DNA of 46,694 bases from Patescibacteria group bacterium (GCA_018818345.1 JAHISI010000016.1:1-46694), one strand, 5' to 3'; positions 9,063 through 34,793 are shown, counted from the first letter of the stretch. The notes: generated by a model not told the origin, from the letters alone. Program-made: numbers and translations.

Positions 9063-9199
9063 TGCAATGTAGATTATACCACGGAAAAGGGGGATTTATA
9101 ACCCTATAGAAAAACGAATTTTAGTTAAATGTCCCATATAGTTGTTGTTGCAAAAGGGTTTGTGGATATGCTAAGCTTGTGGTTGTGAATTATTGATAA

Positions 9200-9274
9200 G
9201 CACCTGTAGCTCAATCTGGATAGAGCAACACACTCCTAACGTGTAGGTTGTCGGTCCGACTCCGGCCAGGTGCG
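9200..9274 (+). tRNA. tRNA-Arg (anticodon CCU)
   Basis: Hand-folded 75-nt cloverleaf. Acceptor GCACCTG/CAGGTGC, D stem GCTC/GAGC, anticodon loop CTCCTAA, T stem GTCGG/CCGGC. Caveats: an A31-C39 mismatch and a non-canonical T loop TCCGACT (C at position 55). Confidence 0.75.
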
Positions 9275-9276
9275 TT

Positions 9277-10862: not shown

Positions 10863-11864
10863 ATGGAAGTAAAGAAAAGAATTTTAACGGGGGACAGACC
10901 TACAGGACAGTTGCACATAGGCCACTATTTTGGGTCTTTACAAAGCAGAGCGAAATTACAAGATGAATATGAGGAGTATATTGAGATAGCAAATATCCAA
11001 GCTTTGACAGATAATTTTGATAACCCGGGTAAGGTTAGAGAAAATATCGAAGAGCTTCTTTGTGATTACTATGCAGCGGGGATTGATTTTGAAAAGGCAA
11101 CAATTTTCATTCAGAGTGAAGTTCCTGCTATCCATGAGATTTTTATATATCTTGCTAACTTCGCTACAGTTCAACAGATACAGCATAATCCTACAATTAA
11201 AACGGAGATGGCTCAAAAAGGAATGGAAGTTTCTACTCCTTTGGGTTTTTTCATCTATCCTATACACCAGGCTGCAGATATATTGTGTGTTAATGCAGAC
11301 TTAGTGCCCGTAGGGAAGGATCAAGCTCCAATGATTGAGGATACGAGGGTTCTTGCTAGAAAATTTAACAATACGTACAAGACAAATCTTTTACATCAAC
11401 CACAAGCACTTTTTGGTGTTGAGGCAAATGTTCCAGGTATTGATGGAAATGCAAAGATGGGAAAGAGTTTAAATAATGGAATATATCTTGCAGATAGCGA
11501 AGAGGAATTAAGAAGGAAAGTATTTAAGGTATACACAGATCCTGCAAGAATCCATGCTACAGATCCAGGTAAGATCGAGGGGAATGTTGCGTTTACATAT
11601 ATGGATCTATTTGCAACTGATCTTGATGAGGTAGAGGCTATGAAAGAAAAGTATAGAAAAGGAGAAATCAAGGATGTAGAGGTTAAAGAAAGACTATTTG
11701 AGATTATGAATGCATATCTCACACCAATAAGAGAGAGAAGAAGAGAAGCAGAAGGTATGAAAGATGAGTTAATGCAGAAAGCGTTAAAAGGTAGTGAGAA
11801 GGTTTCTGGCATAGCAAGAGATATTGCTGATCAGATGAAAGAAGCGATGAAATTGAAGTTTTAA
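10863..11864 (+). CDS. trpS: Tryptophanyl-tRNA synthetase
   Basis: 333-aa class I aaRS with a HIGH motif (GQLHIGHY) and a KMSKS motif (KMGKS). The size and overall pattern are those of TrpRS. Confidence 0.95.
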   Translation: MEVKKRILTGDRPTGQLHIGHYFGSLQSRAKLQDEYEEYIEIANIQALTDNFDNPGKVRENIEELLCDYYAAGIDFEKATIFIQSEVPAIHEIFIYLANFATVQQIQHNPTIKTEMAQKGMEVSTPLGFFIYPIHQAADILCVNADLVPVGKDQAPMIEDTRVLARKFNNTYKTNLLHQPQALFGVEANVPGIDGNAKMGKSLNNGIYLADSEEELRRKVFKVYTDPARIHATDPGKIEGNVAFTYMDLFATDLDEVEAMKEKYRKGEIKDVEVKERLFEIMNAYLTPIRERRREAEGMKDELMQKALKGSEKVSGIARDIADQMKEAMKLKF

Positions 11865-11903
11865 GTGATAATAGATAACTTGTAGTAGTTGGAGCTAATT
11901 CAT

Positions 11904-12923
11904 ATGTTTGTAAAGAAATTAGGTATAGACCTAGGAACAGCTAACTCAGTTGTATTTGTACAAGGGGAGGGTATTGTCTTAACTGAACCAACAGTAGTAG
12001 CTATAGATGTTAACAACTTCACTGTCATAGCAGTTGGACTAGAAGCAAAGGAAATGATTGGTAAAACTCCAGACAATATTGTTGCCAAAAGACCTCTACG
12101 AAATGGAGTTATAGCAGATTCCCGAGTCACGGAAGCTTTACTAAGATATTTCTTTGATAAAGCATTGGGTAAGAGTAGATTTTTCAAACCAGATGTAGTC
12201 ATTAGTGTCCCTGCAGGTATTACTTCGGTAGAAGAAAGAGCAGTACTGAAAGCTGCTAATGCTGTTGGTGCTAGGAATGTCACATTGCTTCCAGAACCAT
12301 TGTTAGCTGCATTAGGGGCTGAAATGCCAATACAGACATCTTCTGGGAACATGATTATAAATATGGGTGGTGGTACTACCGAAGTCGCCGTTATATCCCT
12401 CGATGGAGTAGTGGAATATGAATCACTAAGAGTTGCAGGTGACGCTATAAATGAAGCCATAATCTCATATATGCGTAAAAAGAAAGGTCTTTTAATTGGA
12501 GAACAAACGGCAGAGAAGATAAAGATTAAGATAGGTTCGGCTCTAGAAGTTAAAGATCCAAGAGAAATGGAAGTAAGAGGAAGGGACGTTGGTGCTGGTA
12601 TGCCTAAATCTGTCGTAGTTAATTCAAATGATATCGCCAAGGCTGTTGAATGGCCATTAAGAAGTATCATTAAGAGCGTACAAGCAGTATTAGAAAAGAC
12701 GCCTCCTGAGCTCTCCGCGGACATCATAGACCGTGGTATGGTTATGAGTGGTGGAACAGCAATGCTCAGAAATCTAGACAAGCTATTCTCTCGTGCTACT
12801 GGAGTGCCAGCTCATGTTGCCGATGATCCATTGTTTTGTGTAGTAAAGGGTACTGGTATTGCCTTAGATCTCATAGAAGAAGGCTCTAGGAAGTTCTCCT
12901 TTAATCGAGATTTTAGAAGATAG
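11904..12923 (+). CDS. mreB: Actin-like rod-shape protein MreB, paralogue 1 (not linked to mreCD)
   Basis: GIDLGTANS phosphate-1 motif, NMGGGTTEVAV, MSGGTAMLRNLD. The ATG at 11904 is preceded by GGAG; the track ORF starts at a TTG at 11889. Confidence 0.9.
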   Translation: MFVKKLGIDLGTANSVVFVQGEGIVLTEPTVVAIDVNNFTVIAVGLEAKEMIGKTPDNIVAKRPLRNGVIADSRVTEALLRYFFDKALGKSRFFKPDVVISVPAGITSVEERAVLKAANAVGARNVTLLPEPLLAALGAEMPIQTSSGNMIINMGGGTTEVAVISLDGVVEYESLRVAGDAINEAIISYMRKKKGLLIGEQTAEKIKIKIGSALEVKDPREMEVRGRDVGAGMPKSVVVNSNDIAKAVEWPLRSIIKSVQAVLEKTPPELSADIIDRGMVMSGGTAMLRNLDKLFSRATGVPAHVADDPLFCVVKGTGIALDLIEEGSRKFSFNRDFRR

Positions 12924-12956
12924 TTTTAATCTTCTTTAACATATATAATATATCCC

Positions 12957-14117
12957 ATGGAAATATTTAATAGAAAAAAGAAGACGTTAAAGCTTGATGA
13001 AGTCACAAAATTGCTTAGTGAATTAAGAATTCCTACAGCATTGGTTTTTACCCCAATAAACTTAGAGACGGAGAAGAAGAAATTTTTTAATAGCGATACA
13101 TACAATCCAGTTTTTGAGTATAGGATTGTTAAGAATAATAACAAAGAGATATTAAAAAAGCTTTCCAATGTAAAAGAGATCGTTGATGTTGATCCTCGTA
13201 TTTCTGATTTCTACCTTCAGTTGATTGATTCTAAGAAAGAGGCTAGTGACCTTATGCATTCCGTTGGAAATAATGAAGAGATTACGGATATTTCTGTACA
13301 TAGGTATGGTAAACCAAGTGACAAGCTTTTTAGAAATGCAGCTAGAGTACTTAGAGGTAAATTAGACAGTTACAATGTAATAGATGAGGATACAATAAAG
13401 AAGGGTGACATTCTCTACTACGATGATATTGTTAAGGTTTTCAATGTTGTATTCCAGGAGTTGGGTTTAGATGGCTGGACAGTGAATAAGTCTATCAATA
13501 TTGCTAAGAATGGTGTGAAGATTGGTGTAAAAAGAAAAGAGATTCTAGTTGATGAGAATATTGAGAGAACCAAATTCAAATTAAGGAAGACGTTGATACA
13601 TGAAGTTGGAACTCATGCTTTGAGAGCGCACAATGGTTTGATGTGTGGGTTTGATGCTTTTAGTAATGCGAATCTTCCTGAGTATTTAGATGTAGAAGAG
13701 GGTTTAGCTACATGGAATGAGAATAGTATGGGTTTGCTTACTGAGAAGTGGTTGAAGAACAAAGCTGCATTGGCATGGGCTATATATTTGGGCGAGGATC
13801 TTTCATTTAGAGAGCTTTACAATGTTCTTTTAGCGGTGTTACCTAAGTACTCTGCTTTTGACGTTACATATCGTGTAAAGAGAGGTTTGGGTGATACTCA
13901 TGATAGGGGGATATATTCTAAGGATGTTGCATATTTTAGAGGTTTTAGAAAAGTTAAGAAGAAATTGGAAGAGAATCCTAGGTTGTATAACCAATTGTAT
14001 GCTGGAAAGATTACATTTAAACAGTGTGAATGGGTTGAGGATGGGTTATTACCTATGCCTACTAATGTTCCTAACAAGGATAAATGGTTAGAGATATTTG
14101 AGAAAGCGGGGATATAG
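12957..14117 (+). CDS. DUF1704 / MATCAP-like metallocarboxypeptidase (QEGLA-motif family)
   Basis: 386-aa ORF with HEVGTH (13599-13616) followed about 27 aa later by EEGLA (13695-13709). This is the metal-binding/QEGLA arrangement I associate with the DUF1704 family, which includes the eukaryotic tubulin detyrosinase MATCAP. It starts 33 nt after mreB paralogue 1. Confidence 0.7.
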   Translation: MEIFNRKKKTLKLDEVTKLLSELRIPTALVFTPINLETEKKKFFNSDTYNPVFEYRIVKNNNKEILKKLSNVKEIVDVDPRISDFYLQLIDSKKEASDLMHSVGNNEEITDISVHRYGKPSDKLFRNAARVLRGKLDSYNVIDEDTIKKGDILYYDDIVKVFNVVFQELGLDGWTVNKSINIAKNGVKIGVKRKEILVDENIERTKFKLRKTLIHEVGTHALRAHNGLMCGFDAFSNANLPEYLDVEEGLATWNENSMGLLTEKWLKNKAALAWAIYLGEDLSFRELYNVLLAVLPKYSAFDVTYRVKRGLGDTHDRGIYSKDVAYFRGFRKVKKKLEENPRLYNQLYAGKITFKQCEWVEDGLLPMPTNVPNKDKWLEIFEKAGI

Positions 14118-14168: not shown

Positions 14169-15668
14169 ATGGATACAAATCCTTCATTAGAGAAAGAAAA
14201 TGCACAGTCTAAAGTCCCAATAAATCCTTATTTTCAACCCTCACAAAAAGATTTGGTAGCCACACCAGAAGTAACGGAAGAAGTAACCCCCGAAATAGTA
14301 GATTTACCCTCCGTCGAAACCGTAAGAATGCCAACATTGGATGATAAGTCTGAAGAACCATCGGCTTTAATTAATAGTTTGCCCAATATTGCTTTGGATC
14401 AAAAAAATAATGCATCATCTAATGTTAAAGATCCCAAAGATCTAGATTTAAAAATGTTGGGTTCAGATGAGCATGGATTGTACATTAAGATCCCAACGGA
14501 GATAAATGCAGAAGTAAGAGATGCTCAAAATGAATTCATTCCTGTTTTTATGGATGTACATAAAAAGTATGCCAATTATCCAGAATGGGAATATATGAAT
14601 GCACAAAATCCATTTGTTTTTGCTCCTGCAACCATTCGAATTATGTCTAATCAGTTAATACCCCAATTACTTAAGGAAACAACAACACTTTTTTCTAATG
14701 GAGTAGAGGAAAATACTGAGAGATCTATGCATTGGAAGGAATCAAATATTGAAGGGATATTAAATAAGCTACTTGCCTATGAATCATATCGATTAGAAAG
14801 AATCATGGCTCCAAGAGCAAGAGATCATATGAAAGAGGCCTTTCCTGGAGAAGAGGTAATCAAGGTTAAAGAGCTATGTACTGGAGCAGGTATGACTACT
14901 GCATTAATGTATGAAGCTTTAAAGGAAACAGGTAAGAAGGTAGAATTTCATTCTGCAGATAATTCACTTCAATCTGTTATTTGTGCCGCTACGTTATTAA
15001 CCTTACGAGGTATTCCAACAAGGATTGTGTTGGAAAGTGGTCAAAAAGAAAAGAACTTTGAGGGTGTAACAATATATTTTGAAACAGCTCAAGAATCTAT
15101 ACAAAAGAATCAAGATAATTACCACTTTGTATTTTCAGATAATGGAATAAATTATTTTGATGAGAAGCCTCACTTTGAGGTTGTAGATGAGATGGTAAAA
15201 AGAGTTAAACCAGGAGGACTTTTTCAAGATTGTACCTTGGATCCTGGAATGCAGGTTGATCTTTCAACAGTAAGCATGCTAGGGACAATCCTCTTCACAA
15301 AGAAGGAAAACTTTAAGAAAAAAGTTAGGTTAGGAGATGCGGAATATAGTATTAAGGAAAAAGATGGGATTTCTTTTATTGAGCAACTCTTTTCTCCTTC
15401 ATCTACTATGCAATACGAACTTTTGGCTGATGTTGGTAAAAAATTAGGAGTGAAAGCTTTCGCAGAATACTTGGGCGGAGCAAAGAAAGCGGGTGCAATA
15501 ACTAAAAAGTTAGCACCAAAAATCGCTCAAGATTTAAGAAAAACAGGAATGAAGATTTTAGAACTTACAGGCCTTAAGGGTTCATATTATCCAACATACG
15601 AAGATCGAAAAACTAGTTTAACAAGATTTTTTGAATTAAAACTGCCAAAGAACAATGATATGGGATAA
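14169..15668 (+). CDS. Hypothetical protein with acidic disordered N-terminus and class I SAM-methyltransferase-like C-terminal half
   Basis: Motif I-like VKELCTGAGM, an acidic loop (FHSADNS) and a post-III-like VKPGGLF. The ATG at 14169 is preferred over the GTG at 14133. The fold assignment is tentative. Confidence 0.5.
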   Translation: MDTNPSLEKENAQSKVPINPYFQPSQKDLVATPEVTEEVTPEIVDLPSVETVRMPTLDDKSEEPSALINSLPNIALDQKNNASSNVKDPKDLDLKMLGSDEHGLYIKIPTEINAEVRDAQNEFIPVFMDVHKKYANYPEWEYMNAQNPFVFAPATIRIMSNQLIPQLLKETTTLFSNGVEENTERSMHWKESNIEGILNKLLAYESYRLERIMAPRARDHMKEAFPGEEVIKVKELCTGAGMTTALMYEALKETGKKVEFHSADNSLQSVICAATLLTLRGIPTRIVLESGQKEKNFEGVTIYFETAQESIQKNQDNYHFVFSDNGINYFDEKPHFEVVDEMVKRVKPGGLFQDCTLDPGMQVDLSTVSMLGTILFTKKENFKKKVRLGDAEYSIKEKDGISFIEQLFSPSSTMQYELLADVGKKLGVKAFAEYLGGAKKAGAITKKLAPKIAQDLRKTGMKILELTGLKGSYYPTYEDRKTSLTRFFELKLPKNNDMG

Positions 15669-17946
15669 TACGTTATATTTGTTTGTTGTAATACTGGGAT
15701 TCACCTCCTTAATAGGGCCTTTAGTTACCTTCATAAAGGAGCCAAAAAATAAAGCATATTTCTTCTTAGGAGTCTTAGGAATAATCGCGGGTCCAGTCTG
15801 GGCTTTTTCTACAGTATCTTTTTTACTAACTGATACATTAAGTACAGCCAAACTTTGGGCAGACATTATATATCTTGCATCAATATCAATCGGACTTTTC
15901 CATTATATTTTCTCCACATACTATCTTCGTAGAAAGAAGATCAATTTGCTGTTTGCATTATTTGTAGTAGGTGGTTTTATATTTCTGCTTTATCAGATAT
16001 TTTTTACTAATAACTTTATTGAAAGAATTGTATTAGAGGGAAATAACTATATTGTGGTAGGGAAGGCATATATGGTCTGGATGGCTTGGTTAACAATCGT
16101 TTTCGCAGTTAATGTATATAAAACTTTAAGAGGATACAAAGAATTGTCATTTATTGAAAAAGAGCAGCAGAAATATTTAATTATTGGGAATGTATTAACT
16201 GTTGTTGGTTCTTTTCCGGCTAATATTATAGCTCCATATTTTGGTATTTATGAGTATATTTGGTTTGGTCCTGTTGTTTTTTCAATTGCAAACCTCATAA
16301 TATCGTATGGTCTAACGCAGACTAGATTCCAGCGATTGGGGGCAGTGATACGTGGGATTCTAAGAAGTCTTTCACTATATGTTATTCCCGCAGTGATATT
16401 TGTTGCTTCTCTGGAATTTCTTTTTCCACTGATTAAGCAGCTTTCAATTTCCAAGTTGTTATTTTATATCATTGCATTTTTGTTTGCCCTGGCTTTTAAA
16501 TTAATTATAGATTCGGTTGCAAATATTTTTCTCTCGGAAAAACAGATTTTAAGGAATAAAGGGGAGGGGTTTATCAAATTGTTGAACTTTGAACAAGAGC
16601 TTTCTGATATATGTAGTAAGACATTGAACTATATATGTCAAAATACCTCTGCAGATAAAGCTCAGATTTATCTTTATGATTCTGTAAATACAAAATCATA
16701 TTACTTTACTAATGGGGATTGGAAGATTGAAAATCTAGATAAGATTTTCACAGAGATACCTGTATATTGGAATAAAAAGACAACTGCGGAGGGAAAGTTT
16801 GAGGCTTTATCAAGATCTGAACTTGAATATTTGAGTAATAAGGATGCCATAGAGTATCGAGAATATTCTAATTTATTGTACTTATTAGAGTTAGCGAAGA
16901 TCCAGATAGTTTACCCAATAGTTTCAGGGAATGAATTGATAGGGGTGCTTTTCATACAGGATTTAGCTAATAACCAGATGTATAAAATAGATGAGCTTAA
17001 TCTTTGGGATCGTATATATAGTCAATTTCATATTTCTGTTAACAAAGCGTTACTATATCAGCAGCTTCAATCGTTGAACTCAACGCTCCAACAAAAAGTA
17101 GATATTCAAACTAAGGAGCTGCAAATAAAGATTTCTGAGCTACAAGAGGCTCGTAAAAAAGAAAACGATATGATCGATATCATGGGTCATGAACTTAGAA
17201 CACCTGCTACCATAGTTAAACTCAATGCTCAATTACTAGAGAAGTTTACAGGGGATATAGATAGCGATCCTGAAGCATACAAGAGATATGTAGATAGGAT
17301 AAAGATGGCAGTGGAGAATGAGATAAAACTTATTAATACATTGCTAAGTAGTGCTAAATTAGAAGGAAATAAGATAGTCATAGATCCTGAAGAGGTTGAT
17401 CTTAAGGAAGAAGTAGATATGGCTATACATGGCAATGAGAAGGATGCGAATGAAAAGAATCTTCCAATAATTAATAATATTAAATCAGATACTCCTCATG
17501 TATATGCAGACAAGGCTAGGGTGGTGGAGATATTAAATAACCTCATAAGTAATGCTGTTAAATATACGGAGAGTGGTAGCGTAACCATTGAGGATAGATA
17601 TGATGATAATTGGGTGGAGGTATCAATCATAGATACAGGGCATGGTATTAGTGCGGAGGATCTTAAAAAGCTTGGCCAGAAGTTCTACAGAGCTGGGAAT
17701 TACATAGATTCTAATGTTAAGGTTGGTGACAAGATGGAGATAGTAAGGCCTGGAGGTACGGGTTTAGGGCTCTATGTGACCTTCAACCTCATACGTAAGA
17801 TGGGTGGTGATGTTCGTGTAGAGAGTGAGGTAGGTAAGGGTAGTAAATTTATATTTATATTACCTAGATACAAAGCACAAGCCATTCATGATCATGATGG
17901 TGAGAGTAATAATATGTTTGAGAAGCTAGGACTTAAAACGCAGTAA
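15655..17946 (+). CDS. Multi-TM sensor histidine kinase (orphan)
   Basis: 763-aa ORF with about 7-8 N-terminal TM helices and a central GAF-like region. H-box MGHELRTP, N-box NLISNAVKYT, G1 DTGHGI, G2 GGTGLGL. The start overlaps the upstream stop by 14 nt. No response regulator lies in the window. Confidence 0.85.
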   Translation: MIWDNTLYLFVVILGFTSLIGPLVTFIKEPKNKAYFFLGVLGIIAGPVWAFSTVSFLLTDTLSTAKLWADIIYLASISIGLFHYIFSTYYLRRKKINLLFALFVVGGFIFLLYQIFFTNNFIERIVLEGNNYIVVGKAYMVWMAWLTIVFAVNVYKTLRGYKELSFIEKEQQKYLIIGNVLTVVGSFPANIIAPYFGIYEYIWFGPVVFSIANLIISYGLTQTRFQRLGAVIRGILRSLSLYVIPAVIFVASLEFLFPLIKQLSISKLLFYIIAFLFALAFKLIIDSVANIFLSEKQILRNKGEGFIKLLNFEQELSDICSKTLNYICQNTSADKAQIYLYDSVNTKSYYFTNGDWKIENLDKIFTEIPVYWNKKTTAEGKFEALSRSELEYLSNKDAIEYREYSNLLYLLELAKIQIVYPIVSGNELIGVLFIQDLANNQMYKIDELNLWDRIYSQFHISVNKALLYQQLQSLNSTLQQKVDIQTKELQIKISELQEARKKENDMIDIMGHELRTPATIVKLNAQLLEKFTGDIDSDPEAYKRYVDRIKMAVENEIKLINTLLSSAKLEGNKIVIDPEEVDLKEEVDMAIHGNEKDANEKNLPIINNIKSDTPHVYADKARVVEILNNLISNAVKYTESGSVTIEDRYDDNWVEVSIIDTGHGISAEDLKKLGQKFYRAGNYIDSNVKVGDKMEIVRPGGTGLGLYVTFNLIRKMGGDVRVESEVGKGSKFIFILPRYKAQAIHDHDGESNNMFEKLGLKTQ

Positions 17947-18886
17947 TAATAGCTTCTGCTATATTTACAGGTTCTCCCTCAATCTTAGTCTCATATGCCT
18001 TATATCCAGGATGTAAACTAATCTCTTGTATACATGGCTTCCCATTCATATACATAAAGTCTACAGCCATGAAATCAGCTTCTAGTACAGCTGTCATCCT
18101 CTCAGCAATCTCAGTAATCTCCTCATTAGGTTGGTTACACATCTCATATGTACTAGTTCTTTTATTAACAGTCATAAATCCTTCTCCTGCAATTCTCTTC
18201 CATCCACCAATAACCTTACCTAGTTTAACAAATATTCTGTAATCTTCACCTGCATCAGAAAATTCTTGTATAAAGAAATGAGAAAGATCCTGTCCATCAA
18301 GATTCTCTTGTTTGTAATCCTCATCTTTCTCTAATTTAAACACGTTCTTTTTTATCTTTTCCTTCCCATCAATCATCTCAGTTCTATTAGCACCAGTATA
18401 TTCTTTAATAATTAGGGGATAGTCCTTTAACATATCTCTATCCTTTAAATACTCACCATTAGTTTGGAAATATGTATTAAAGTAGGGGAGGTTATTTTTT
18501 GAACACAGCATTGCGAAGGCTATCTTATTGTAATATGGAAGATTCTTGATTGCTTTGGAATTTTGAATGATCACTTTTTTTTCTGGGTTGTCTCTATTAT
18601 ATTGATCAACGTAATCTATCATGAATCTCTTATATTGATACTCACGTTCATCGTCTAATGAATGACCCCGTAAAATCACGTTGCTGTACTCCGTTATGTC
18701 GTGCCCAGCTACCTTGATAACCGTGGAACCATTATGAAACAAGAATTCTATCTCATCGTTATATGCAAAATCGCAAGGTATATCCTTCTTTTTTAATTCT
18801 TCTACTAATCTTGCAGATCCAGTAGGTATTTCGCCCATGGTAGCTACTTGCACACGTTGTCTTTTATCTATAATGAGGTATTTCAT
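17933..18886 (-). CDS. RimK-like ATP-grasp amidoligase
   Basis: 317-aa ORF with ATP-grasp C-terminal signatures (EDYRIFVKLGKVIGGWKRI, MAVDFMYMNGKPCIQEISLHPG). Last gene of the minus-strand operon; its stop overlaps the kinase gene's 3' end (17933-17946). Confidence 0.7.
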   Translation of the reverse strand: MKYLIIDKRQRVQVATMGEIPTGSARLVEELKKKDIPCDFAYNDEIEFLFHNGSTVIKVAGHDITEYSNVILRGHSLDDEREYQYKRFMIDYVDQYNRDNPEKKVIIQNSKAIKNLPYYNKIAFAMLCSKNNLPYFNTYFQTNGEYLKDRDMLKDYPLIIKEYTGANRTEMIDGKEKIKKNVFKLEKDEDYKQENLDGQDLSHFFIQEFSDAGEDYRIFVKLGKVIGGWKRIAGEGFMTVNKRTSTYEMCNQPNEEITEIAERMTAVLEADFMAVDFMYMNGKPCIQEISLHPGYKAYETKIEGEPVNIAEAIITAF

Positions 18887-18887
18887 A

Positions 18888-20579
18888 TTAGAATTTTTTA
18901 ATTTTAGATATTAAACCTTTGAATTGATACTTTCTAATTGCTTTTACAAAATCTTTGTCTTCAAAGTACTTCTTTTCGACCATTAATAGATCGATTCTAT
19001 TAAATCCTAGTCCTGTTTCTCTTATCTCATCTGTATTTCGATGTTGTATGATCATTGCATCTAAAGAAGCGTTTACTTTAAGGCCTTCTATTGCCTTCCA
19101 TTTCTCTAGGCCTTTATTTATATCTAACCCATTGATTCTTATGCCTTCATCTTTGTATTCTCCGATAACGGCATCTTGTTTGAGGTACGATCCAAAGAGT
19201 GATTTCTTACGAAGTAGGGTAGGAATGTCTTGTGTACTATTACCTACAATTACTATCTGCTTTGTATTATTGCCTTTAACTAGCGCTTTTACATATTTCT
19301 CATATACTTCTTCTCTAGATTCTCCGATAACTGGATACACATTGAGATATGCTTCGGGCATGATATTGATTTCAATTATTCCGCCATTCTCTTGTGTAAG
19401 AGGTTTTGATATGTCCTGACAAAGGATATCGACACCTAACGTAAATGCATGGATAGAGGAAGCTATACTTTCTACGATTGCTTTAATCTCAGGTCCAACC
19501 TTTTCTGTAAAGTCTTCTGTGATACCACCTTGGCTCATACTTGCTACCTTTCTAACATAGATTTTCTGTTCTTTCTTAGGAATAGATTCTAATGTAAGTT
19601 TTTGGTCTTTGAGATATGAGAGTAGGGGTTCATCGATTATTATTGGTTTAAGTGTATGGGTTGGATTGGTTACATCCCTTCGAGGGTCAGTATTGGTTAC
19701 TTCTATTAATTCTTTTATTGTACTCTTGCCATTTCCTACAATGAAAGCAGGGATTCTCTTCGTGGTTATTTCTAGATGACCATCTATAACCAAGAGCCTG
19801 TAATCTTCCCCTTTGATTTGTTCTTGCATCATTATCTTGTTCTGCCATTCTTTCCCGATGTGTTTGCTACATGCCTTTTGTGCAAATTTGAATGCGTCCT
19901 TAGCTTCTTCTATAGTTTTGATACTTGTTACTACTCCATGTCCGCCAACTAAGCCAACAGGCTTAATGACTACGGGTTTTTCATATTGGCTCCAAATCTC
20001 TTCGAGTTGAGTAATATTATCTACTACTTGCCATTTAGGAATAGGGAGGCCCATACGCTCAATCATTAAATTACTTGCCCACTTATCTTTTTGTATTGTT
20101 TGAGCAATCTTCGAATCTTTACTAGAGGACACGGAATACAGGATCTCGGAGTGTTTTCCTACACCAATTGTGTAATGTCTATTGTATCCTTTCGAATATG
20201 TTACTCTCTGGTCTTGAACTAAAGTAGGCGTTGTTTCAAGTCCTAGCTTGTTTGCAATGTGTAGGATGGGGATGGTAACCATGGAGAGAAGTCTCTGTTT
20301 TATGACCTCTTCTAATGTATATTTTTTTGCTTCTTCATAGCTCATCTTTCCATTATCTAGAGCTACAATTATCTCTCCAAGTTCTCTCCAGAGAGATGTC
20401 ATTTGAGAACGTATGCTTAGGATATCATTTTCAAACTTATATTCTCTAATGAACAAAGGATGAAATCCCTTGAGCATTTCTAAATATTTTACAATCGCAT
20501 CTGATTTATGGACGTTGAGTTTAATAACTGAGAGATCTGATTCTAGATTGAGACCTTGTAGAACTTGCACGTTACTCAT
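18888..20579 (-). CDS. Cyanophycin-synthetase-like protein: CphA N-domain + ATP-grasp (G) domain + truncated degenerate Mur-ligase remnant
   Basis: 563 aa. PVVIKP, EDYRLLVIDG..RIPAFIVGNGKSTIKELIEVTNTDPRR and QDISKPL..GGIIEIN align closely with my recollection of CphA1 (PVVIKP, DHRVLVVNG..RIPAHVTGDGTSTITELIDKTNQDPNRG, SDISKPL..VIVEVN). Where CphA has the P-loop AVTGTNGKTTT, this protein has IVGNSTQD, and it ends about 115 aa later. Confidence 0.8.
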   Translation of the reverse strand: MSNVQVLQGLNLESDLSVIKLNVHKSDAIVKYLEMLKGFHPLFIREYKFENDILSIRSQMTSLWRELGEIIVALDNGKMSYEEAKKYTLEEVIKQRLLSMVTIPILHIANKLGLETTPTLVQDQRVTYSKGYNRHYTIGVGKHSEILYSVSSSKDSKIAQTIQKDKWASNLMIERMGLPIPKWQVVDNITQLEEIWSQYEKPVVIKPVGLVGGHGVVTSIKTIEEAKDAFKFAQKACSKHIGKEWQNKIMMQEQIKGEDYRLLVIDGHLEITTKRIPAFIVGNGKSTIKELIEVTNTDPRRDVTNPTHTLKPIIIDEPLLSYLKDQKLTLESIPKKEQKIYVRKVASMSQGGITEDFTEKVGPEIKAIVESIASSIHAFTLGVDILCQDISKPLTQENGGIIEINIMPEAYLNVYPVIGESREEVYEKYVKALVKGNNTKQIVIVGNSTQDIPTLLRKKSLFGSYLKQDAVIGEYKDEGIRINGLDINKGLEKWKAIEGLKVNASLDAMIIQHRNTDEIRETGLGFNRIDLLMVEKKYFEDKDFVKAIRKYQFKGLISKIKKF

Positions 20580-20589
20580 AATGGTAGAC

Positions 20590-21579
20590 TTATAATTTAT
20601 TTGTGTACTTATCTCTAATATATTCCATAATAGGGATGGCGACCTTCACCTTTTCACCCTTGTCAGCTTTGTAATGTAATCTTAATCCAGGGTTGTAGTT
20701 AATTTCATTAATTCCACACTTACCTGGTTTTGTTATATCTTCTGCAATGATATCTACACCCCCAAATTCTAAATCAAGAGCCTTAACGGCCTTCACAGCG
20801 AGCTCTTTGTAGTATGGATCCACGATGGATGCGCACTCTTCTGTAGTGCCTCCAGTGGTGAGGTTACAATTGTATCTGAGAGTTATAACTTGGCCTTCGT
20901 CAGGAATGGTATCTAATGTAAGGTCGGCATTTTTTAATCGTATTTCCACTTCGGAATCTATTGGAATTGGCTTGAGAATGAGTAGACTACGCTCTTTATT
21001 TGAAATATCAATTAATTCTCTTATAGTGTTCTTACTATTACCAATAACCACAGGAGCCTTCCTCCAGACTATTCCAACAACGTTTTCACCAACTACTAGG
21101 AAGCGATAGTTCTCTCCTTTTATGAATTCTTCTCCTAGTACTTTTACTTCTCCTTTTGATCTGTCTTTTTCTAAAGCTTCGTTAAAAGAAGAAATCACTT
21201 GCTCTTCAGTTTCTGGGAGTAGGGTAATGCCTTTTCCTCCGAGTTGTTGTGAGGGTTTTATTACAATGTCTTTGTACTTATTGAAGAACTTTATAGCATC
21301 GATAGCGCTACTCAAGCCTTCTTGCTTTGGGACATCTACACCATATGAACTTAATACCATGTTAGTTAAGTTTTTACGTTTTGAAATGGTAGCACTTGGG
21401 GAGGAGGTTAGTGGGGTGACTGTGTTTATAATGAACCAATGCTTATCTCCAACCTCAAACTTAGCAATTAGGCTTCTCACAACTATTGAATACTTGATAC
21501 TTAAGATATCTGCAGCTTCTACATAGTATGCTAAATGCACATTACCAGCCTCTTTCAAATATTCTTCGTATGTTTTCAT
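20590..21579 (-). CDS. Stand-alone cyanophycin-synthetase G-domain-like ATP-grasp ligase
   Basis: 329 aa. IVIKPSQQLGGKGI, ENYRFLVVGE, VVIGNSKNTIRELID, NLTTGGT and GGVDIIAEDITKP..INEINYNPGLRLH parallel the CphA ATP-grasp domain. The ATG overlaps the upstream stop (TAATG). Confidence 0.75.
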   Translation of the reverse strand: MKTYEEYLKEAGNVHLAYYVEAADILSIKYSIVVRSLIAKFEVGDKHWFIINTVTPLTSSPSATISKRKNLTNMVLSSYGVDVPKQEGLSSAIDAIKFFNKYKDIVIKPSQQLGGKGITLLPETEEQVISSFNEALEKDRSKGEVKVLGEEFIKGENYRFLVVGENVVGIVWRKAPVVIGNSKNTIRELIDISNKERSLLILKPIPIDSEVEIRLKNADLTLDTIPDEGQVITLRYNCNLTTGGTTEECASIVDPYYKELAVKAVKALDLEFGGVDIIAEDITKPGKCGINEINYNPGLRLHYKADKGEKVKVAIPIMEYIRDKYTNKL

Positions 21580-23036
21580 TATTTAAATGTTTTACTCGTA
21601 TCAATTAAGTAATCTCTTAAGTCATTTCTACCTAAGGTGACAGAATGTGTACTGTCTTCGGTTACAATCATCTCGAGGTCTCGAATCTCTCCTGAAATCT
21701 TTACTTTAACAATGATAACAGGTCTGATTACAATTTGCCCATCTTCAAAGATTTTTGCCAAACGTATAATATATTCGTCACTTGTACTATTCTTGCTGTA
21801 TTCATCGATATAGTCTTGAGCATCTGTAAAAGTATCAAAAGTTTTAGGACATTTGAGATAATCAAACTGTCTCATTGTTTCAAAATATCCCATTCGTGAT
21901 ACATAGCTTCTGGATATACGAGAAGTTATAGCTCCTGTATCTACAAATGCAGTGGTAAGTTCTCTGTCTTTGTTTTCATTCTTACTACCTTCTTTGTATG
22001 ATTTGTAGTAAAGGGTTATCTTCTCATTAATATTTATAACCTTTCTTCCACTAATAGCTTCAATGCTGTCTTCGACTTCACCGCCAAAGAGGTTTTTTGC
22101 TACTCTAATTCCATGCTTAATACTTTTTACAGAAAGCCCTTTGATTTTTTCTAATCTCCATTTTAATCCGGCTTGGTTGGCTACTTGTATACCAAGACCA
22201 GGTCTAGCATTTAGCTCAAATACAATTGGACCTTTGTCTGCATCTAATGCTATATCTACACCTACATATCCAAGCTTGCTTGCTTTTTGACATCTTACAG
22301 CTATATCCAATATCTTGTCCCAATCAGGTATCTGAACGCCTGAAAGTTTTTTGTTAATTTTTAGATCTTGAGTCGAATCGATCATCTCATATGTATCACT
22401 TAAGAACGATTTATTGTTCATGTGCATAGAGTAGGTGGTTATACCTGTTCCAATGTCTATACCGGTACATATCGCTCCTGAGTGGAGATTGGCGGTACCA
22501 TTAGATCTTCTAGTAGGTATTCTAATCATGGCCATAATCGGTACTAGGTTGAAGCAGATGATTCTTAAATCGGGTACGCCTTTGTAGGAGTATTGTTTTA
22601 GGAATGAATCTGTTCGGACTCTTTCTTCGATGATTGCGATGTCACTTCTTTCGCCCATTGAGAATCTTCCTTCAAGGATATTTTCAATGTGTAAAGTGAG
22701 ATCTTTCTTTGATAGTACCTCTCCGCCTGGTCTAATCCATGCTAATTCTCCTTTTTTACGACCATAGAGGACGAGGATTCCATTCCCACCAGTTCCTTGA
22801 TTAGGTTTAATTACGAAGCTTTTTGGTAATGACTCCCAATCTAAGAAGGCTAATTGCTTTCTGTTTTTTATTAACTTGTATACTTCAGAGGTTTGTATTC
22901 CTTCTCTAGCCAATAGCTTCTTTGTAGCTATCTTGTTGTCTGCTAGTGCCTTAGCTTTTGGATGGTTGTATGGACGAACATATTCCTGATTTCGTCTATT
23001 GAGCCCTAATACTTCGTTCATTCTACTTCTGAACAT
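21579..23036 (-). CDS. Alpha-L-glutamate-ligase-like ATP-grasp fused to C-terminal retropepsin-like (DTGA, DUF785/RimB-like) domain
   Basis: 485 aa. The N-terminus (GLNRRNQEYVRPYNHPKAKALADNKIATKKLL), VIKPNQGTGGNGI and VFELNARPGL resemble the RimK-related alpha-L-glutamate ligase-like family. The C-terminal region of about 160 aa carries FVDTGA (21930-21941) and a terminal LGRNDL..YLID, like DUF785 peptidases. Confidence 0.75.
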   Translation of the reverse strand: MFRSRMNEVLGLNRRNQEYVRPYNHPKAKALADNKIATKKLLAREGIQTSEVYKLIKNRKQLAFLDWESLPKSFVIKPNQGTGGNGILVLYGRKKGELAWIRPGGEVLSKKDLTLHIENILEGRFSMGERSDIAIIEERVRTDSFLKQYSYKGVPDLRIICFNLVPIMAMIRIPTRRSNGTANLHSGAICTGIDIGTGITTYSMHMNNKSFLSDTYEMIDSTQDLKINKKLSGVQIPDWDKILDIAVRCQKASKLGYVGVDIALDADKGPIVFELNARPGLGIQVANQAGLKWRLEKIKGLSVKSIKHGIRVAKNLFGGEVEDSIEAISGRKVININEKITLYYKSYKEGSKNENKDRELTTAFVDTGAITSRISRSYVSRMGYFETMRQFDYLKCPKTFDTFTDAQDYIDEYSKNSTSDEYIIRLAKIFEDGQIVIRPVIIVKVKISGEIRDLEMIVTEDSTHSVTLGRNDLRDYLIDTSKTFK

Positions 23037-23691
23037 TGTCTTTGTTTTGGCTAATTGATTTAAATCTGAACAGATCCTTCACTCTTAATCCTGCAAACTG
23101 GCCAATGAAGATGTTAAATACAATTAGAAGAGGAACAATCCAGAGGTTGTTTATGAAATACTCAGATACTGCATCTCTGGTTATGACAAACCATCCTAAT
23201 GCAGCTATGATTACGGTACTTGAAAGAATCATAACTGAGGACTTGAAGGATTTTTTAACATATTGCTTTATGAAGAAGTCTGAAAGTGCGGCAATTGAAA
23301 TTACTGCCAATCCGGAGATATTTGTCATGTTTTCTAAACCTAGACCAAATCTTTCTACAACAATGAAGAATACCACTAACATTATGGCTAGCAAACAATA
23401 GTTTACAGCTATCCTGGCGATGTAGTGCATACGTACTTTTCTAAGGATAGTGTATGAGAGTAGGGTAGTTAGTATGACGATTAGGGTTATGGCTAATCCA
23501 TATTTAAGTCCAGTATATGAATATGCAATTGCCAAGATTATTGGCGCATATATTCCATATGTTTTGGACCCTATGACGTATCTAGCTATACTTACAATGG
23601 TAGCTACGATCATTACAGCGAGTAACAATTCAAGTACCTGTTGAGGAACGCCAGTCGTAATCATCCATTGTGTAAAAGGTGTATAGGTCAT
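23023..23691 (-). CDS. Stand-alone 7-TM membrane protein (7TM module of the type usually fused to an inactive transglutaminase)
   Basis: 222 aa with seven hydrophobic helices countable by eye and a basic C-terminal tail. First gene of the operon, overlapping the next gene by 14 nt. Family assignment is from memory of the ATP-grasp-associated 7TM family and is tentative. No obvious SD. Confidence 0.6.
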   Translation of the reverse strand: MTYTPFTQWMITTGVPQQVLELLLAVMIVATIVSIARYVIGSKTYGIYAPIILAIAYSYTGLKYGLAITLIVILTTLLSYTILRKVRMHYIARIAVNYCLLAIMLVVFFIVVERFGLGLENMTNISGLAVISIAALSDFFIKQYVKKSFKSSVMILSSTVIIAALGWFVITRDAVSEYFINNLWIVPLLIVFNIFIGQFAGLRVKDLFRFKSISQNKDNVQK

Positions 23692-23731: not shown

Positions 23732-23761
23732 ATTATACTTAATTTGGGGTGTATTTGTCGA
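23732..23761 (-). promoter_or_regulatory. Candidate sigma70-type promoter of the 7TM/ATP-grasp operon
   Basis: On the minus strand: TCGACA, 18-nt spacer, TATAAT. The -10 lies about 40 nt upstream of the 7TM start codon. Confidence 0.45.
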
Positions 23762-23790: not shown

Positions 23791-23812
23791 AGGACTGACC
23801 TAGGTCAGTCCT
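23791..23812. repeat. Perfect 22-bp palindrome AGGACTGACCTAGGTCAGTCCT
   Basis: Verified self-complementary by hand. It lies about 30 nt upstream of the candidate -35 of the ATP-grasp operon. Confidence 0.9.
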
Positions 23813-23975: not shown

Positions 23976-23996
23976 AGGACTGACCTAGGTCTGACC
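23976..23996. repeat. Degenerate second copy of the palindrome (AGGACTGACCTAGGTCTGACC)
   Basis: It shares the first 16 nt with the 23791 copy, 185 nt away, and lies just downstream (minus sense) of the rplL terminator. Confidence 0.7.
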
Positions 23997-24011
23997 TTTT
24001 TGTTTATTAAT

Positions 24012-24037
24012 AAAAAAGAGCCATATTGCTATGGCTC
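24012..24037 (-). terminator. Intrinsic terminator after rplL
   Basis: Minus strand: GAGCCAT-AGCAAT-ATGGCTC followed by TTTTTT, about 28 nt after the rplL stop. Confidence 0.7.
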
Positions 24038-24064
24038 CTCTTACGATCTATCTATGTAGAACTA

Positions 24065-25264: not shown

Positions 25265-25714
25265 TTACCAGTTGAGGTCTTCCATAAATATGGAAGGACT
25301 CAGCCCGACAAGGGATGGAATAATTTGAAGCTCCTCGCCCTCATATCTTTGTTGCTTTCTGGGCTTTTTGGGGAATGCTGGTTCCTGTTTGATATACGAT
25401 AAAGAGGTTTCATCATTCTTTTTCACCTCACGGAAGTAAAACAGTATTCCTTCTTTAGTGCAAATTTTGATTGTATTCCAACACTTTCGTTTGTTTGAAA
25501 TAATATGGAAAACACGTTCTCCCATATGTAGGATAGTACCATCAATCCAGGGAATAATTTTCTCCTTAGTTTGCGGAATATCCTTTTCCAAAAAACATGG
25601 AGGTTCTGAAAATGGTTTTAAACTTTTCGAAACTACCTTTGTTTGATATGGATGGGGATCCCCTTGTCGAGGGCATTCCTTGCAGAATTTAGTGTTGCCA
25701 CATAAATTACACAT
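25265..25714 (-). CDS. Hypothetical protein with N-terminal CxxC..CxxC zinc-ribbon-like motif
   Basis: 149-aa ORF with a good SD (AAGGGAG 8 nt upstream of the ATG). The N-terminus is MCNLCGNTKFCKEC. No family recognised. Confidence 0.55.
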   Translation of the reverse strand: MCNLCGNTKFCKECPRQGDPHPYQTKVVSKSLKPFSEPPCFLEKDIPQTKEKIIPWIDGTILHMGERVFHIISNKRKCWNTIKICTKEGILFYFREVKKNDETSLSYIKQEPAFPKKPRKQQRYEGEELQIIPSLVGLSPSIFMEDLNW

Positions 25715-26004: not shown

Positions 26005-26352
26005 TCAATCTATGGTTACGCTTAAAAGCCTGGTAGCCCGATTGATTCTCTCTACATATAATGTAATGGGAATAACTTTATCATTCTCCTTATCTTCGAT
26101 CTCTGTATGAATTTTTTCACTTCGCGTTGAAAATGGTTCACGGCTTTTGATTGGGAACTTGACGCTATTAAACTTCACGTTCTCATCTCTTTCCATGATA
26201 AAATCACAGAAAGTACCATCACCATTACACGGAATGAGCAATTCAATTTCAGTAAAAAAAAGGAACAGCTTTTTATCTTTCTTTAATACAATCAGACCAG
26301 GATAGCATTTCTCTTCGTTATACTCGTTTCCTTGTACAGTTGTAATACACAT
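26005..26352 (-). CDS. Hypothetical protein
   Basis: 115-aa ORF with an AAGGA SD-like element upstream and its own candidate promoter. No family recognised. Confidence 0.5.
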   Translation of the reverse strand: MCITTVQGNEYNEEKCYPGLIVLKKDKKLFLFFTEIELLIPCNGDGTFCDFIMERDENVKFNSVKFPIKSREPFSTRSEKIHTEIEDKENDKVIPITLYVERINRATRLLSVTID

Positions 26353-33444: not shown

Positions 33445-33454
33445 TATATCTACT

Positions 33455-34273: not shown

Positions 34274-34290
34274 TTTGAATATATATTAAA

Positions 34291-34785
34291 ATGTCGATAT
34301 TGTACGTGCTTTTAACTACATTCGGAGTCATCTTTTTGGAAAGCTTTTTAGTAGCCTTGGCTAATTTGAGGTTTCTTTTCCTGTTGAACGTGTCTCTTTT
34401 TAACAAAATTAATTGGAAGCACTTACTGTCTTTTTCTCTTTTGAGCTCCTTAATCCTTGATGTCATATATCACTATGTGCTTGGAACTAACCTGTTAATG
34501 GTTGCCGTTCCTTTACTCATAATGCTTTTAATATCTCTCATCGTACCATTAGAAAATAGTTTGCCAGGTTACAGTGTTAAGTTTGTCTGTATCTTTCTTT
34601 ACTACCTCTTCGTTTCATTTGTCCCTAACCTCATTTTAACTGGACAGGGAACAGTCATAACGGGTGTGATGCTAGGGGGAATGGTATTGAAGGCAGCTAT
34701 ATCTGTGCTCTTCTGTGTAGTGTTTGATGTCGTATGGAGTAGGCTAAGAAAGAAGGAAGAAGGAACGAAATTAAGATCTTTGTAG
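34291..34785 (+). CDS. mreD: Rod shape-determining protein MreD (polytopic membrane protein)
   Basis: 164 aa with about 5 TM helices. The assignment is mainly by its conserved position between mreC and mrdA. Confidence 0.6.
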   Translation: MSILYVLLTTFGVIFLESFLVALANLRFLFLLNVSLFNKINWKHLLSFSLLSSLILDVIYHYVLGTNLLMVAVPLLIMLLISLIVPLENSLPGYSVKFVCIFLYYLFVSFVPNLILTGQGTVITGVMLGGMVLKAAISVLFCVVFDVVWSRLRKKEEGTKLRSL

Positions 34786-34793
34786 GGAATATA

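Follow-up and report, generated by a model that had tools for sequence, protein, structure and literature searches.

The described systems closest to the locus analysed here are the rloABC genes of Pseudomonas aeruginosa, the RimK-RimB pair and the cyanophycin synthetases CphA1 and CphA2. In P. aeruginosa, the proteases RloA and RimB cut runs of at least eight alpha-glutamates, and deletion of rloB or rloC suppresses the loss of the proteases, implying that the material cleared by the protease is a product of the ligase and the 7TM protein (Lormand et al., mBio 2025, PMC12239564). RimK-RimB adds poly-alpha-glutamate to ribosomal protein S6 and trims it. CphA1 is a full-length N-G-M enzyme of about 870 aa with an active Mur-type M domain, and CphA2, in the literature a cyanobacterial enzyme, combines the N and G domains with a truncated, inactive M domain and has one ATP-grasp site. 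To our knowledge, the product chemistry has been established for no RloC-type enzyme.

Here, we analysed a window of 46,694 nucleotides (the whole stretch of DNA considered, JAHISI010000016.1 of GCA_018818345.1) from a Patescibacteria group bacterium, in which ORF calling delineates five genes on the minus strand at 17933-23691: G1 (23023-23691, 222 aa), G2 (21579-23036, 485 aa), G3 (20590-21579, 329 aa), G4 (18888-20579, 563 aa) and G5 (17933-18886, 317 aa). G1 and G2 overlap by 14 nt, and G2 and G3 by 1 nt at a stop/start reading TAATG; G3 and G4 lie 10 nt apart, and G4 and G5 1 nt apart. This is exactly the unit, with the junctions, that an earlier, sequence-only reading of this DNA had described. 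That reading had assigned the products, in order, to a stand-alone 7TM protein, a glutamate-ligase-like ATP-grasp fused to a DTGA peptidase-like domain, a CphA G-domain-like ligase, a CphA N+G protein with a dead, truncated M domain and a RimK-like ligase, and all five domain calls are reproduced by Pfam, NCBIfam and PDB profile searches and by structure prediction. The catalytic residues of the four ATP-grasp domains and the DTG of the protease are invariant or nearly so. It had also raised the case of the ligases being ordinary Ddl, MurD-type, glutathione synthetase or carbamoyl-phosphate enzymes; in the profile searches, these identities yielded only weak, partial superfamily matches, at 15-40 bits where the cutoffs are 240-500, and were rejected.

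The first two genes resemble rloABC in that a RloC-type ATP-grasp (TIGR02291/PF14397), a PF14402 7TM protein and a DUF785 retropepsin-like protease are encoded together in both systems. G1 matches PF14402 at 62 bits (cutoff 25); its match to the RloB model NF052267 is confined to positions 311-505 of 508 (42.9 bits, cutoff 900), and a hydropathy scan shows six clear hydrophobic segments, with space for a seventh at residues ~44-62. Judged by these matches, G1 corresponds to the 7TM C-terminal half of RloB and lacks the inactive transglutaminase domain that RloB carries in the periplasm. The N-terminal part of G2 (residues 1-300; 22137-23036, minus strand) scores 215 bits with PF14397 (cutoff 31) and 285.9 bits with TIGR02291, slightly below the equivalog cutoff of 314.2; K77, E137/E138, D261, E274 and N276 are invariant among 40 orthologs, and the closest solved folds are ArgX/LysX and RimK. 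A profile of the C-terminal part (residues ~331-485; 21582-22046, minus strand), built from 20 orthologs, matches the RloA structures 9G59 (E 1.4e-3) and 9G58 (E 2.9e-3), as well as 2pma, and PF05618 is matched by 12 of the 20 orthologs (best E 4.9e-8), with the G2 of the window itself staying at 13 bits, below the cutoff of 27. The AF2 model of this domain retrieves phage and retroviral acid proteases from BFVD (E 4.8e-5, TMt 0.68), with the proteases of EIAV, AMV and CaMV among further structural matches. D366 and T367 of the catalytic motif are present in 70 of 70 sequences and G368 in 64, and in the C-terminal G-R motif G469 is found in all 70 and R470 in 61; R438-P439-V440 is also conserved. 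Profiles and model together identify a retropepsin-like aspartic protease domain of the DUF785/RloA/RimB type.

Several features set this pair of genes apart from its Pseudomonas counterpart. RloA is a separate, secreted protein with a signal peptide, whereas the protease of the operon forms the C-terminus of a cytoplasmic ligase, an arrangement that leaves no possibility of an N-terminal signal peptide; the protease domain is cytoplasmic. The operon also adds three further ligases, and it resides in a CPR bacterium, while 96% of RloB matches are reported to be proteobacterial. The sequence-only reading had referred to a predicted core of ATP-grasp, 7TM/inactive transglutaminase and DUF785 peptidase with a product yet to be established; this module is no longer wholly uncharacterised, since it is that of the Pseudomonas rloABC genes (PMC12239564).

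The next two genes extend the locus towards the cyanophycin synthetases, G3 and the G domain of G4 (32% identical to each other) both belonging to the CphA G-domain ATP-grasp subfamily. G3 consists of the G domain only, without N or M; it matches positions 166-471 of cyanophycin synthetase models (E 5e-60), finds CphA1 (7lgn, 7lgm) as its best PDB matches and retains the loop R-x-x-x-N-L-T-T-G-G of CphA1 and CphA2 (R...N-L-(S/T)-T-G-G). It also matches the C-terminal half of GshAB (167 bits) and NAGGN synthetase (133 bits) among the NCBIfam models. The ATP-grasp domains of GshAB and Ngg fall in the same subfamily as G3 and G4, but both proteins score far below the equivalog cutoffs, and the operon is devoid of GshA and GNAT domains. 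GshAB and Ngg ATP-grasp enzymes form defined di- or tripeptides, which by analogy would support a building-block role for G3.

In G4, an N domain (residues ~1-135) and a catalytic G domain (~136-430) are followed by the truncated and inactive remnant of an M domain (~431-563). The AF2 model of the protein (pLDDT 86.6, pTM 0.85) finds CphA2 (7ta5) as the top Foldseek match over its full length (E 8.7e-37, 586 aligned columns, TMq 0.68, TMt 0.66), and the sequence matches to 8fxh and 7ta5 reach into the M remnant. The ATP-grasp residues K206, D384, E403 and N405 are invariant, whereas G-(Q/N)-S-x-x-D-I-P stands in place of the Mur-ligase P-loop GTNGKT, a change that makes Mur-type ligation in the remnant impossible. 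From alignment and model, G4 has the layout of CphA2 (7ta5, 8fxh, 8fxi), with an N and a G domain before a short inactive M, and likewise one ATP-grasp site; identity is about 22-30%, and the N domain (~135 aa) and M remnant (~130 aa) are shorter. An active M domain, a hallmark of CphA1, occurs nowhere in the operon, in line with the earlier proposal that amide-bond formation proceeds here without a Mur-ligase-type activity.

This architecture raises the question of whether the operon makes genuine cyanophycin, with G3 and either G5 or G2 producing a beta-Asp-Arg-like dipeptide, or with dipeptides scavenged from a host, and with G4 repolymerising them as a nitrogen store in the manner of cyanobacterial CphA2. 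In addition to its domain layout, G4 keeps the counterparts of StCphA2 R308, D362, R389 and S395 as R261, D316, R343 and S349, some orthologs are annotated as cyanophycin synthetase in their sources, and cyanophycin synthetase has been reported in some other Patescibacteria (Saccharimonadia). [quoted passage not shown] The position of StCphA2 N393, which is essential, is occupied by Ser in 76 of 76 G4 sequences. The cyanophycin synthetase scores are 247 bits for G4 and 204 bits for G3 against family cutoffs of 877 and 850. Genes for cyanophycinase, S51 peptidase or isoaspartyl dipeptidase were not found in the 46.7-kb window, nor was a full-length CphA1, so that the locus does not correspond to a known cyanophycin locus, a case the earlier reading had set against its own. 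Furthermore, a Rlo-type module and a poly-Glu-type protease have no known role in cyanophycin metabolism. The variable arginine-binding position and the lack of a cyanophycinase in the window make canonical cyanophycin unlikely, and the product is probably not the arginine-decorated polymer; any assignment of substrates from active-site residues is, however, weak. We regard genuine cyanophycin synthesis as quite improbable.

The fifth gene encodes a putative divergent ligase of the RimK/MptN/LysX-like ATP-grasp group. G5 scores 34 bits with the Pfam RimK ATP-grasp model PF08443 (cutoff 21) and 52 bits with TIGR00768, under the cutoff of 143.4, and its sole PDB match is RimK 7qyr. K161, E208, D215, R217, D276 and E288 are invariant; at the Mg site, E-x-S replaces the usual E-x-N in 65 of 70 sequences, and the Gly-rich loop is absent from G5, so that the enzyme may be slow or non-catalytic. 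As in RimK-RimB, an alpha-L-glutamate-ligase-family ATP-grasp occurs with a cytoplasmic retropepsin-like protease, but here the two share one polypeptide, the operon further includes a membrane partner and CphA-type ligases, and G5 and G2 score far under the RimK family cutoffs.

A comparison of 80 loci from Dojkabacteria species genomes in GTDB, 65 of them long enough for all five genes, shows that G1-G5 are colinear on one strand in 65 of 65, with median gaps of -11, 9, 5 and 3 nt, an arrangement beyond what chance would give; the sequence-only reading had proposed a survey of neighbourhood conservation across Patescibacteria. G1 is found in 69 of the 80 loci, the remaining loci ending at contig edges, and ortholog identity falls to about 42-46%. 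The operon always lies downstream of rplL, after rplJ-rplL, and rplA, rplJ and rplL are syntenic with it across the lineage. In the window, rplL is followed by a hairpin and T-run (~24010-24040), and the spacer to G1 measures 373 nt against a median of 151 nt among the loci of relatives. The candidate promoter noted earlier is seen there as TCGACA-18-TATAAT (23732-23761, minus strand), ~40 nt 5' of the G1 ATG, which matches the consensus at 11 of 12 positions; such promoter-like sites, defined by consensus match only, are fewer in the scanned region than in shuffled sequence. Two copies of a 22-bp palindrome, AGGACTGACCTAGGTCAGTCCT, lie 5' of this site (23791-23812 and 23976-23997). The four matches obtained compare with 0.01 expected, the rest of the window has none, and the two copies may be operators or the ends of a small insertion.

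On the other side of the operon, two genes on the plus strand nearly always converge on it. One encodes a MATCAP/QEGLA-type metallocarboxypeptidase (12957-14117; PF08014 98.9 bits, cutoff 27; TIGR02421 118 bits, below the equivalog cutoff of 339), predicted to be catalytically intact from the motifs H215-E216-x-x-x-H220 and E247-E248-G-L-A, which are invariant in 59 sequences. The other, co-directional with it, is an mreB paralog (11904-12923; PF06723), whose position is kept in 59 loci at a median gap of 17 nt and which is treated here as context only; the canonical mreB-mreC-pbp2 set lies at 32389-36803. The MATCAP-like gene adjoins G5 in 64 loci (median gap 6 nt). In the window, the two are separated by an insertion (14169-17946, plus strand) encoding a 499-aa protein and a 7TM histidine kinase, which is shared only with the two closest relatives; it is lineage-specific and outside the conserved unit. 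Neither the class-wide conservation nor the carboxypeptidase neighbour had been remarked upon in the earlier reading. Linked to the operon through synteny, the MATCAP-like protein is a candidate trimming enzyme for its product, yet rplA, rplJ and rplL are also syntenic, which makes synteny alone weak evidence.

MATCAP family members are C-terminal carboxypeptidases, and an ATP-grasp ligase beside a MATCAP-family gene recalls the tubulin tyrosine ligase cycle, although in Dojkabacteria the genes run towards each other and are not co-transcribed, and the comparison, based on synteny, is one of analogy only. The juxtaposition suggests that an acidic C-terminus is extended and trimmed in a cycle. 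It may be that one specific protein receives Glu or Asp residues at its C-terminus or on side chains, in the way that RimK modifies S6 or TTLLs modify tubulin, and that the retropepsin and MATCAP-like enzymes shorten the tail in a reversible cycle. Such protein tailing would fit the RimK/LysX/ArgX structural neighbourhood of G2 and G5, the cytoplasmic location of the G2 protease, shared with RimB, the trimmer of RpsF poly-Glu tails, the PF08014-matching neighbour from a family of C-terminal carboxypeptidases, and the constant position of the operon after rplJ-rplL and against the mreB paralog. Nevertheless, we know of CphA-type G domains acting on free polymer chains only, and a RimK-like cycle leaves the 7TM partner and the four ligases unaccounted for. 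Acidic C-termini are also absent from the neighbours checked (...FNRDFRR in the MreB paralog, ...VELK in L7/L12), and a conserved gene for a small carrier protein was not found in the cluster among the compared loci. We consider tailing of a protein unlikely.

The 7TM protein and the mreB paralog direct attention to the cell envelope as well, where the 7TM protein might hold a lipid-linked intermediate of peptidoglycan or of a glycopolymer while the ligases attach amino acids to it, altering wall charge or cross-linking. Pseudomonas rlo mutants show defects in cell shape, beta-lactam sensitivity and hypo-osmotic conditions, a Shewanella RloB homologue affects membrane-vesicle production, and in distant Dojkabacteria (L066) genes for a GT4 glycosyltransferase and Wzy_C are interleaved with the operon. 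Interleaved envelope genes are, however, confined to a few loci, and we know of no CphA or RimK relatives acting on lipid-linked substrates. We therefore consider modification of an envelope precursor unlikely.

The reading we tentatively prefer, and hold to be a fair possibility short of a probable one, is that the operon encodes a membrane-associated, non-ribosomal amino-acid ligation pathway, in which a Rlo-type module, i.e., the 7TM protein and a RloC-type ligase fused to a RloA/RimB-type retropepsin, has been enlarged by G3, the CphA2-type G4 and the RimK-like G5, and whose product would be an acidic oligo- or poly-amino-acid. As regards substrates, the sequence of steps and what the 7TM and MATCAP-like proteins do, we infer the following scheme. 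Each of the four ATP-grasp enzymes would convert a carboxylate into an acyl phosphate, to which an amino group is added, and jointly they would build an Asp/Glu-based chain. G3 would make or extend a building block, to be polymerised by G4 at the one active site of its G domain, just as CphA2 polymerises beta-Asp-Arg; G2 and G5 would contribute Glu-type residues in alpha linkage. Trimming of the product would fall to the dimerised retropepsin domain of G2 and to the neighbouring MATCAP-type carboxypeptidase, and G1 would tether the product or pass it at the membrane.

Collectively, the analysis adds to the described systems a class-wide colinear operon with a conserved rplL/MATCAP/mreB-paralog context, a G4 family whose members with a source name are all Dojkabacteria, and a CphA2-like enzyme in which the arginine-binding residue is not conserved, in a host that is not a cyanobacterium and has no cyanophycinase gene alongside. 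The operon is probably vertically inherited, and it is Dojkabacteria-wide, being retained in at least 65 species of a group with tiny genomes.

The five open reading frames recognized in the sequence-only reading, with their coordinates and all four junctions, were recovered in an ORF check of the window. All lie on the minus strand, running from G1, a 7TM protein (23023-23691), through G2, an ATP-grasp ligase with a retropepsin-like domain (21579-23036), G3, a ligase resembling the G domain of cyanophycin synthetases (20590-21579), and G4, a CphA2-like protein (18888-20579), to the last operon gene, G5, a RimK-like ligase (17933-18886). G1 overlaps G2 by 14 nt, the G2 stop codon shares one base with the G3 start inside TAATG, G3 ends 10 nt before G4, and G4 ends 1 nt before G5. 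Given that a promoter-like TCGACA-18-TATAAT lies approximately 40 nt upstream of G1 and that rplL is followed by a hairpin with a T-run, the operon has its own plausible start. An Rfam scan for regulatory RNAs upstream of G1 returned nothing credible. The rplL-G1 spacer exceeds the median of other Dojkabacteria by approximately 220 nt and contains 2 copies of a perfect or near-perfect 22-bp palindrome, AGGACTGACCTAGGTCAGTCCT (23791-23812 and 23976-23997), located 185 bp apart and found nowhere else in the window; the copies may represent paired operators or delimit a small insertion.

The 4 ligases of the operon are distinct, the sole detectable kinship being that between G3 and G4 (32% identity). 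G1 matches the 7TM_transglut family at 62 bits and aligns with no more than the final 200 positions of the model of RloB, the transglutaminase-7TM protein of the Pseudomonas aeruginosa rloABC system, indicating that it is the membrane half of such a protein, with the periplasmic inactive transglutaminase missing. Residues 1-300 of G2 correspond to an ATP-grasp domain of the type found in RloC, the ligase of the same system (PF14397, 215 bits; TIGR02291, 286 bits, slightly below the cutoff), and its ATP-grasp residues are invariant. The C-terminal 155 residues of G2 score weakly in the window protein itself; a profile built from 20 orthologs matches crystal structures of the RloA protease (9G59 and 9G58), as well as 2pma, and 12 of the 20 orthologs match PF05618. 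Every sequence has D366 and T367, 64 out of 70 have G368, and G469-R470 are conserved. The AF2 model of G2 (pLDDT 81.9) resembles phage and retroviral acid proteases, a likeness that emerged only in the viral structure library and the sequence-profile search, ATP-grasp matches dominating when the whole model was compared with the PDB using Foldseek.

G3 matches the cyanophycin synthetase models over exactly their G domain (positions 166-471) and scores against CphA1, CphA2, GshAB, and NAGGN synthetase. In this subfamily, polymerases (CphA1 and CphA2) stand alongside enzymes whose products are defined di- or tripeptides (GshAB and NAGGN synthetase). In CphA2, an N domain that is not catalytic is joined to a single catalytic G domain and to an M domain that is truncated and dead (PMC10273328). 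G4 has the same design, since its AF2 model (pLDDT 86.6) aligns over the whole length to cyanophycin synthetase 2 (top Foldseek match 7ta5, E = 8.7e-37, 586 columns) and the position of the Mur-ligase P-loop GTNGKT is occupied by G-(Q/N)-S-x-x-D-I-P. G5 is a divergent RimK/MptN/LysX-like ATP-grasp protein with invariant key residues, in which E-x-S replaces E-x-N. The possibility that these ligases are ordinary Ddl, Mur, glutathione, or CPS enzymes was rejected, since in profile searches those families matched at a weak superfamily level only.

When GTDB species, each represented by a single genome, were scanned with a G4 alignment, 80 loci were recovered, on which the window proteins were placed by tblastn; because the scan patterns are specific to the G4 family, very distant clusters could escape detection. 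Loci with a lineage label in their names are mostly Dojkabacteria, and the names of the remaining ones are generic or automatically assigned (for example Saccharibacteria, Microgenomates, Patescibacteria group, or "bacterium"). In all 65 loci long enough to hold the five genes, G1 to G5 follow one another in this order on a single strand, with median gaps of -11, 9, 5, and 3 nt by tblastn, and the block is always preceded by rplA-rplJ-rplL, with a median spacer of 151 nt. The proteins of the most distant loci have diverged to 36-57% identity, so the operon was not recently transferred. Among 1.84 billion representative proteins, approximately a dozen clusters at 50% identity resemble G4 over its full length, some of them fragments; its closest named relatives belong to candidate division WS6/Candidatus Dojkabacteria, and the exact protein is matched on one ENA metagenome contig. 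Divergent family members (35-39% identity) with a source name are also all from Dojkabacteria, and, within the reach of the family-specific scan patterns, an occurrence of the cluster outside this lineage was accordingly rejected. The next-best matches are proteins of approximately 690-2400 aa with 2 or 3 tandem CphA-G-like domains, followed by proteins of CphA1 or CphA2 size. The tandem proteins (P0256-P0299) are metagenomic, outscore CphA1 and CphA2 in similarity to G4, and may form a class of multi-site amino-acid polymerases not yet characterised. In the 150 best representatives, such tandems were the only fusions, with none to 7TM, RloC, RimK-like, or MATCAP domains.

The same core, consisting of a 7TM protein, an RloC-type ligase, and a DUF785 protease, is found in rloABC of P. 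aeruginosa, described in 2025 (PMC12239564), with RloB reported to be 96% proteobacterial. The secreted RloA proteases cut runs of at least 8 alpha-glutamates, and Pseudomonas lacking all 3 proteases dies under hypo-osmotic conditions, shows cell-shape defects, and is sensitive to beta-lactams. These defects are suppressed by deletion of rloB or rloC (PMC12239564), so that the ligase and the membrane protein appear to generate what the protease must remove. Phenotypes linked to the Rlo/7TM/DUF785 module in Pseudomonas include osmotic tolerance, cell shape, beta-lactam sensitivity, and biofilm, and an RloB homologue affects membrane-vesicle production in Shewanella. Unlike rloABC, the Dojkabacteria version is devoid of the transglutaminase domain, carries 3 extra ligases, and has its protease fused to the ligase, which implies a cytoplasmic, RimB-like location. 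Thus, with both components being of known kinds, what is new is the combination of an Rlo-type module with CphA-type ligases, a variant rather than a categorically new system.

We considered whether the operon simply makes cyanophycin by comparing 76 G4 orthologs with the residues that hold cyanophycin or the dipeptide in the co-complex study of the cyanophycin synthetase StCphA2. R308, which binds cyanophycin, is conserved (R261 in G4), as are D362, R389, and S395 of the putative dipeptide site (D316, R343, and S349, respectively). The essential N393 is replaced by an invariant Ser, and D212, which salt-bridges the arginine guanidinium (E215 in SuCphA1), corresponds mainly to K (26), E (22), N (11), T (8), or D (4) in the 76 orthologs and to T, R, or K in G3. 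Scanning the remaining genes of the window with Pfam revealed neither a cyanophycinase nor an S51 peptidase and, with no full-length CphA1 present either, a known cyanophycin locus was rejected. These residue differences and the lack of a cyanophycinase or S51 peptidase gene in the window make canonical cyanophycin an unlikely product, and true cyanophycin metabolism is, in our judgment, quite improbable.

Instead, we lean, with slightly less than even confidence, toward an acidic amino-acid chain that would be built by the Rlo-type module together with multiple ligases, trimmed, and handled at the membrane. Four ATP-grasp sites and no Mur-type site imply that each bond is formed through an acyl-phosphate intermediate on a carboxylate, and an acidic product is suggested by the enzyme families and by the poly-Glu specificity of RloA and RimB. 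G3 might make or extend a building block that G4 would polymerize, as CphA2 does with beta-Asp-Arg; G2 and G5, relatives of alpha-glutamate ligases, could add Glu-type residues; the retropepsin domain and a MATCAP-type carboxypeptidase would limit chain length; and the 7TM protein would anchor the product or pass it at the membrane.

The MATCAP/QEGLA-family metallocarboxypeptidase gene (12957-14117, plus strand), with intact HExxxH and EEGLA motifs, meets G5 head-on in 64 loci (median gap 6 nt), with an mreB paralog next to it. It is a candidate member of the pathway on the basis of synteny, which the ribosomal protein genes of the region share equally, and a literature search for MATCAP/DUF1704 together with ATP-grasp returned no match. 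Its head-on arrangement with G5 is reminiscent of the cycle of ligase and carboxypeptidase that acts on tubulin tails in eukaryotes, and reversible tailing of a protein is a conceivable, if unlikely, function of the operon; an acid-tailed substrate next door was sought and rejected, the C-termini of the MreB paralog and L7/L12 not being acidic and the two small ORFs between rplA and rplJ lacking counterparts in other loci. Modification of an envelope precursor is an improbable alternative, slightly less likely than tailing, on which one distant Dojkabacteria locus (L066) bears. In this locus, a same-strand AAT/C45 Ntn-hydrolase family gene separates G3 from G4, and genes for a GT4 glycosyltransferase, an unknown product, and a Wzy_C O-antigen-ligase-like protein are interspersed around G5 and the MATCAP-like gene (extra genes at 9007-9984, 11661-13879, and 16109-17365); another locus, L077, has gaps of similar size. 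The interleaved genes hint at an envelope connection.

Several other features of the window were recorded. Between G5 and the MATCAP-like gene, an insertion (14169-17946, plus strand) confined to the window and its 2 closest relatives encodes a 499-aa protein, with no Pfam or NCBIfam match, and a 7TM-sensor histidine kinase, the stop of which shares 14 nt with the oppositely oriented stop region of G5. Besides the mreB paralog (11904-12923), the window contains a canonical mreB, downstream of which lie mreC, an unknown small ORF, and the gene of a PBP2-type transpeptidase (32389-36803). Two small minus-strand ORFs between rplA and rplJ (25265-25714 and 26005-26352; 149 and 115 aa) have no family matches, and tblastn against the 80 related loci matched neither of them; they are therefore lineage-specific or not genes. 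Ribosomal protein S2 (41226-42356, plus strand) is extended at its C-terminus by a segment that matches the RNA polymerase alpha C-terminal/helix-hairpin-helix domain (PF03118, E = 2.8e-13), an unusual fusion. A RuBisCO large-subunit homologue (PF00016 and PF02788; 2948-4351, plus strand), present here in a small-genome bacterium, is flanked by a radical-SAM RlmN-like gene and a prolyl-tRNA synthetase gene.

Collectively, these results physically link the cyanophycin-synthetase lineage to the Rlo/7TM/DUF785 module. In the literature, CphA2 is described as a cyanobacterial enzyme, and a search for Dojkabacteria together with cyanophycin returned no match; G4 extends the occurrence of CphA2-type polymerases beyond cyanobacteria, to a setting with no recognisable link to cyanophycin. 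A more specific version of the proposal, which we regard as speculative and doubtful, is a novel Dojkabacteria poly-amino acid with a cyanophycin-like backbone assembled by ATP-grasp enzymes only, bearing Glu tails or side groups other than arginine that may be acidic, delivered to the surface by the 7TM protein, controlled in length by the retropepsin and MATCAP-like enzymes, and serving a lineage-defining envelope or charge-buffering role. Given that the ligases are 4 soluble ATP-grasp enzymes, the nature of the product is accessible to heterologous expression and in vitro assay, and a new biopolymer would interest users of cyanophycin and poly-aspartate. If correct, the more specific version would also reveal the long-sought product class of the proteobacterial Rlo/7TM/DUF785 systems. 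The operon occupies approximately 5.8 kb in genomes with largest contigs of 0.72-0.76 Mb, and the retention of its gene order in such small genomes, while the proteins diverge to approximately 45% identity, indicates that it is likely important to these uncultivated bacteria.
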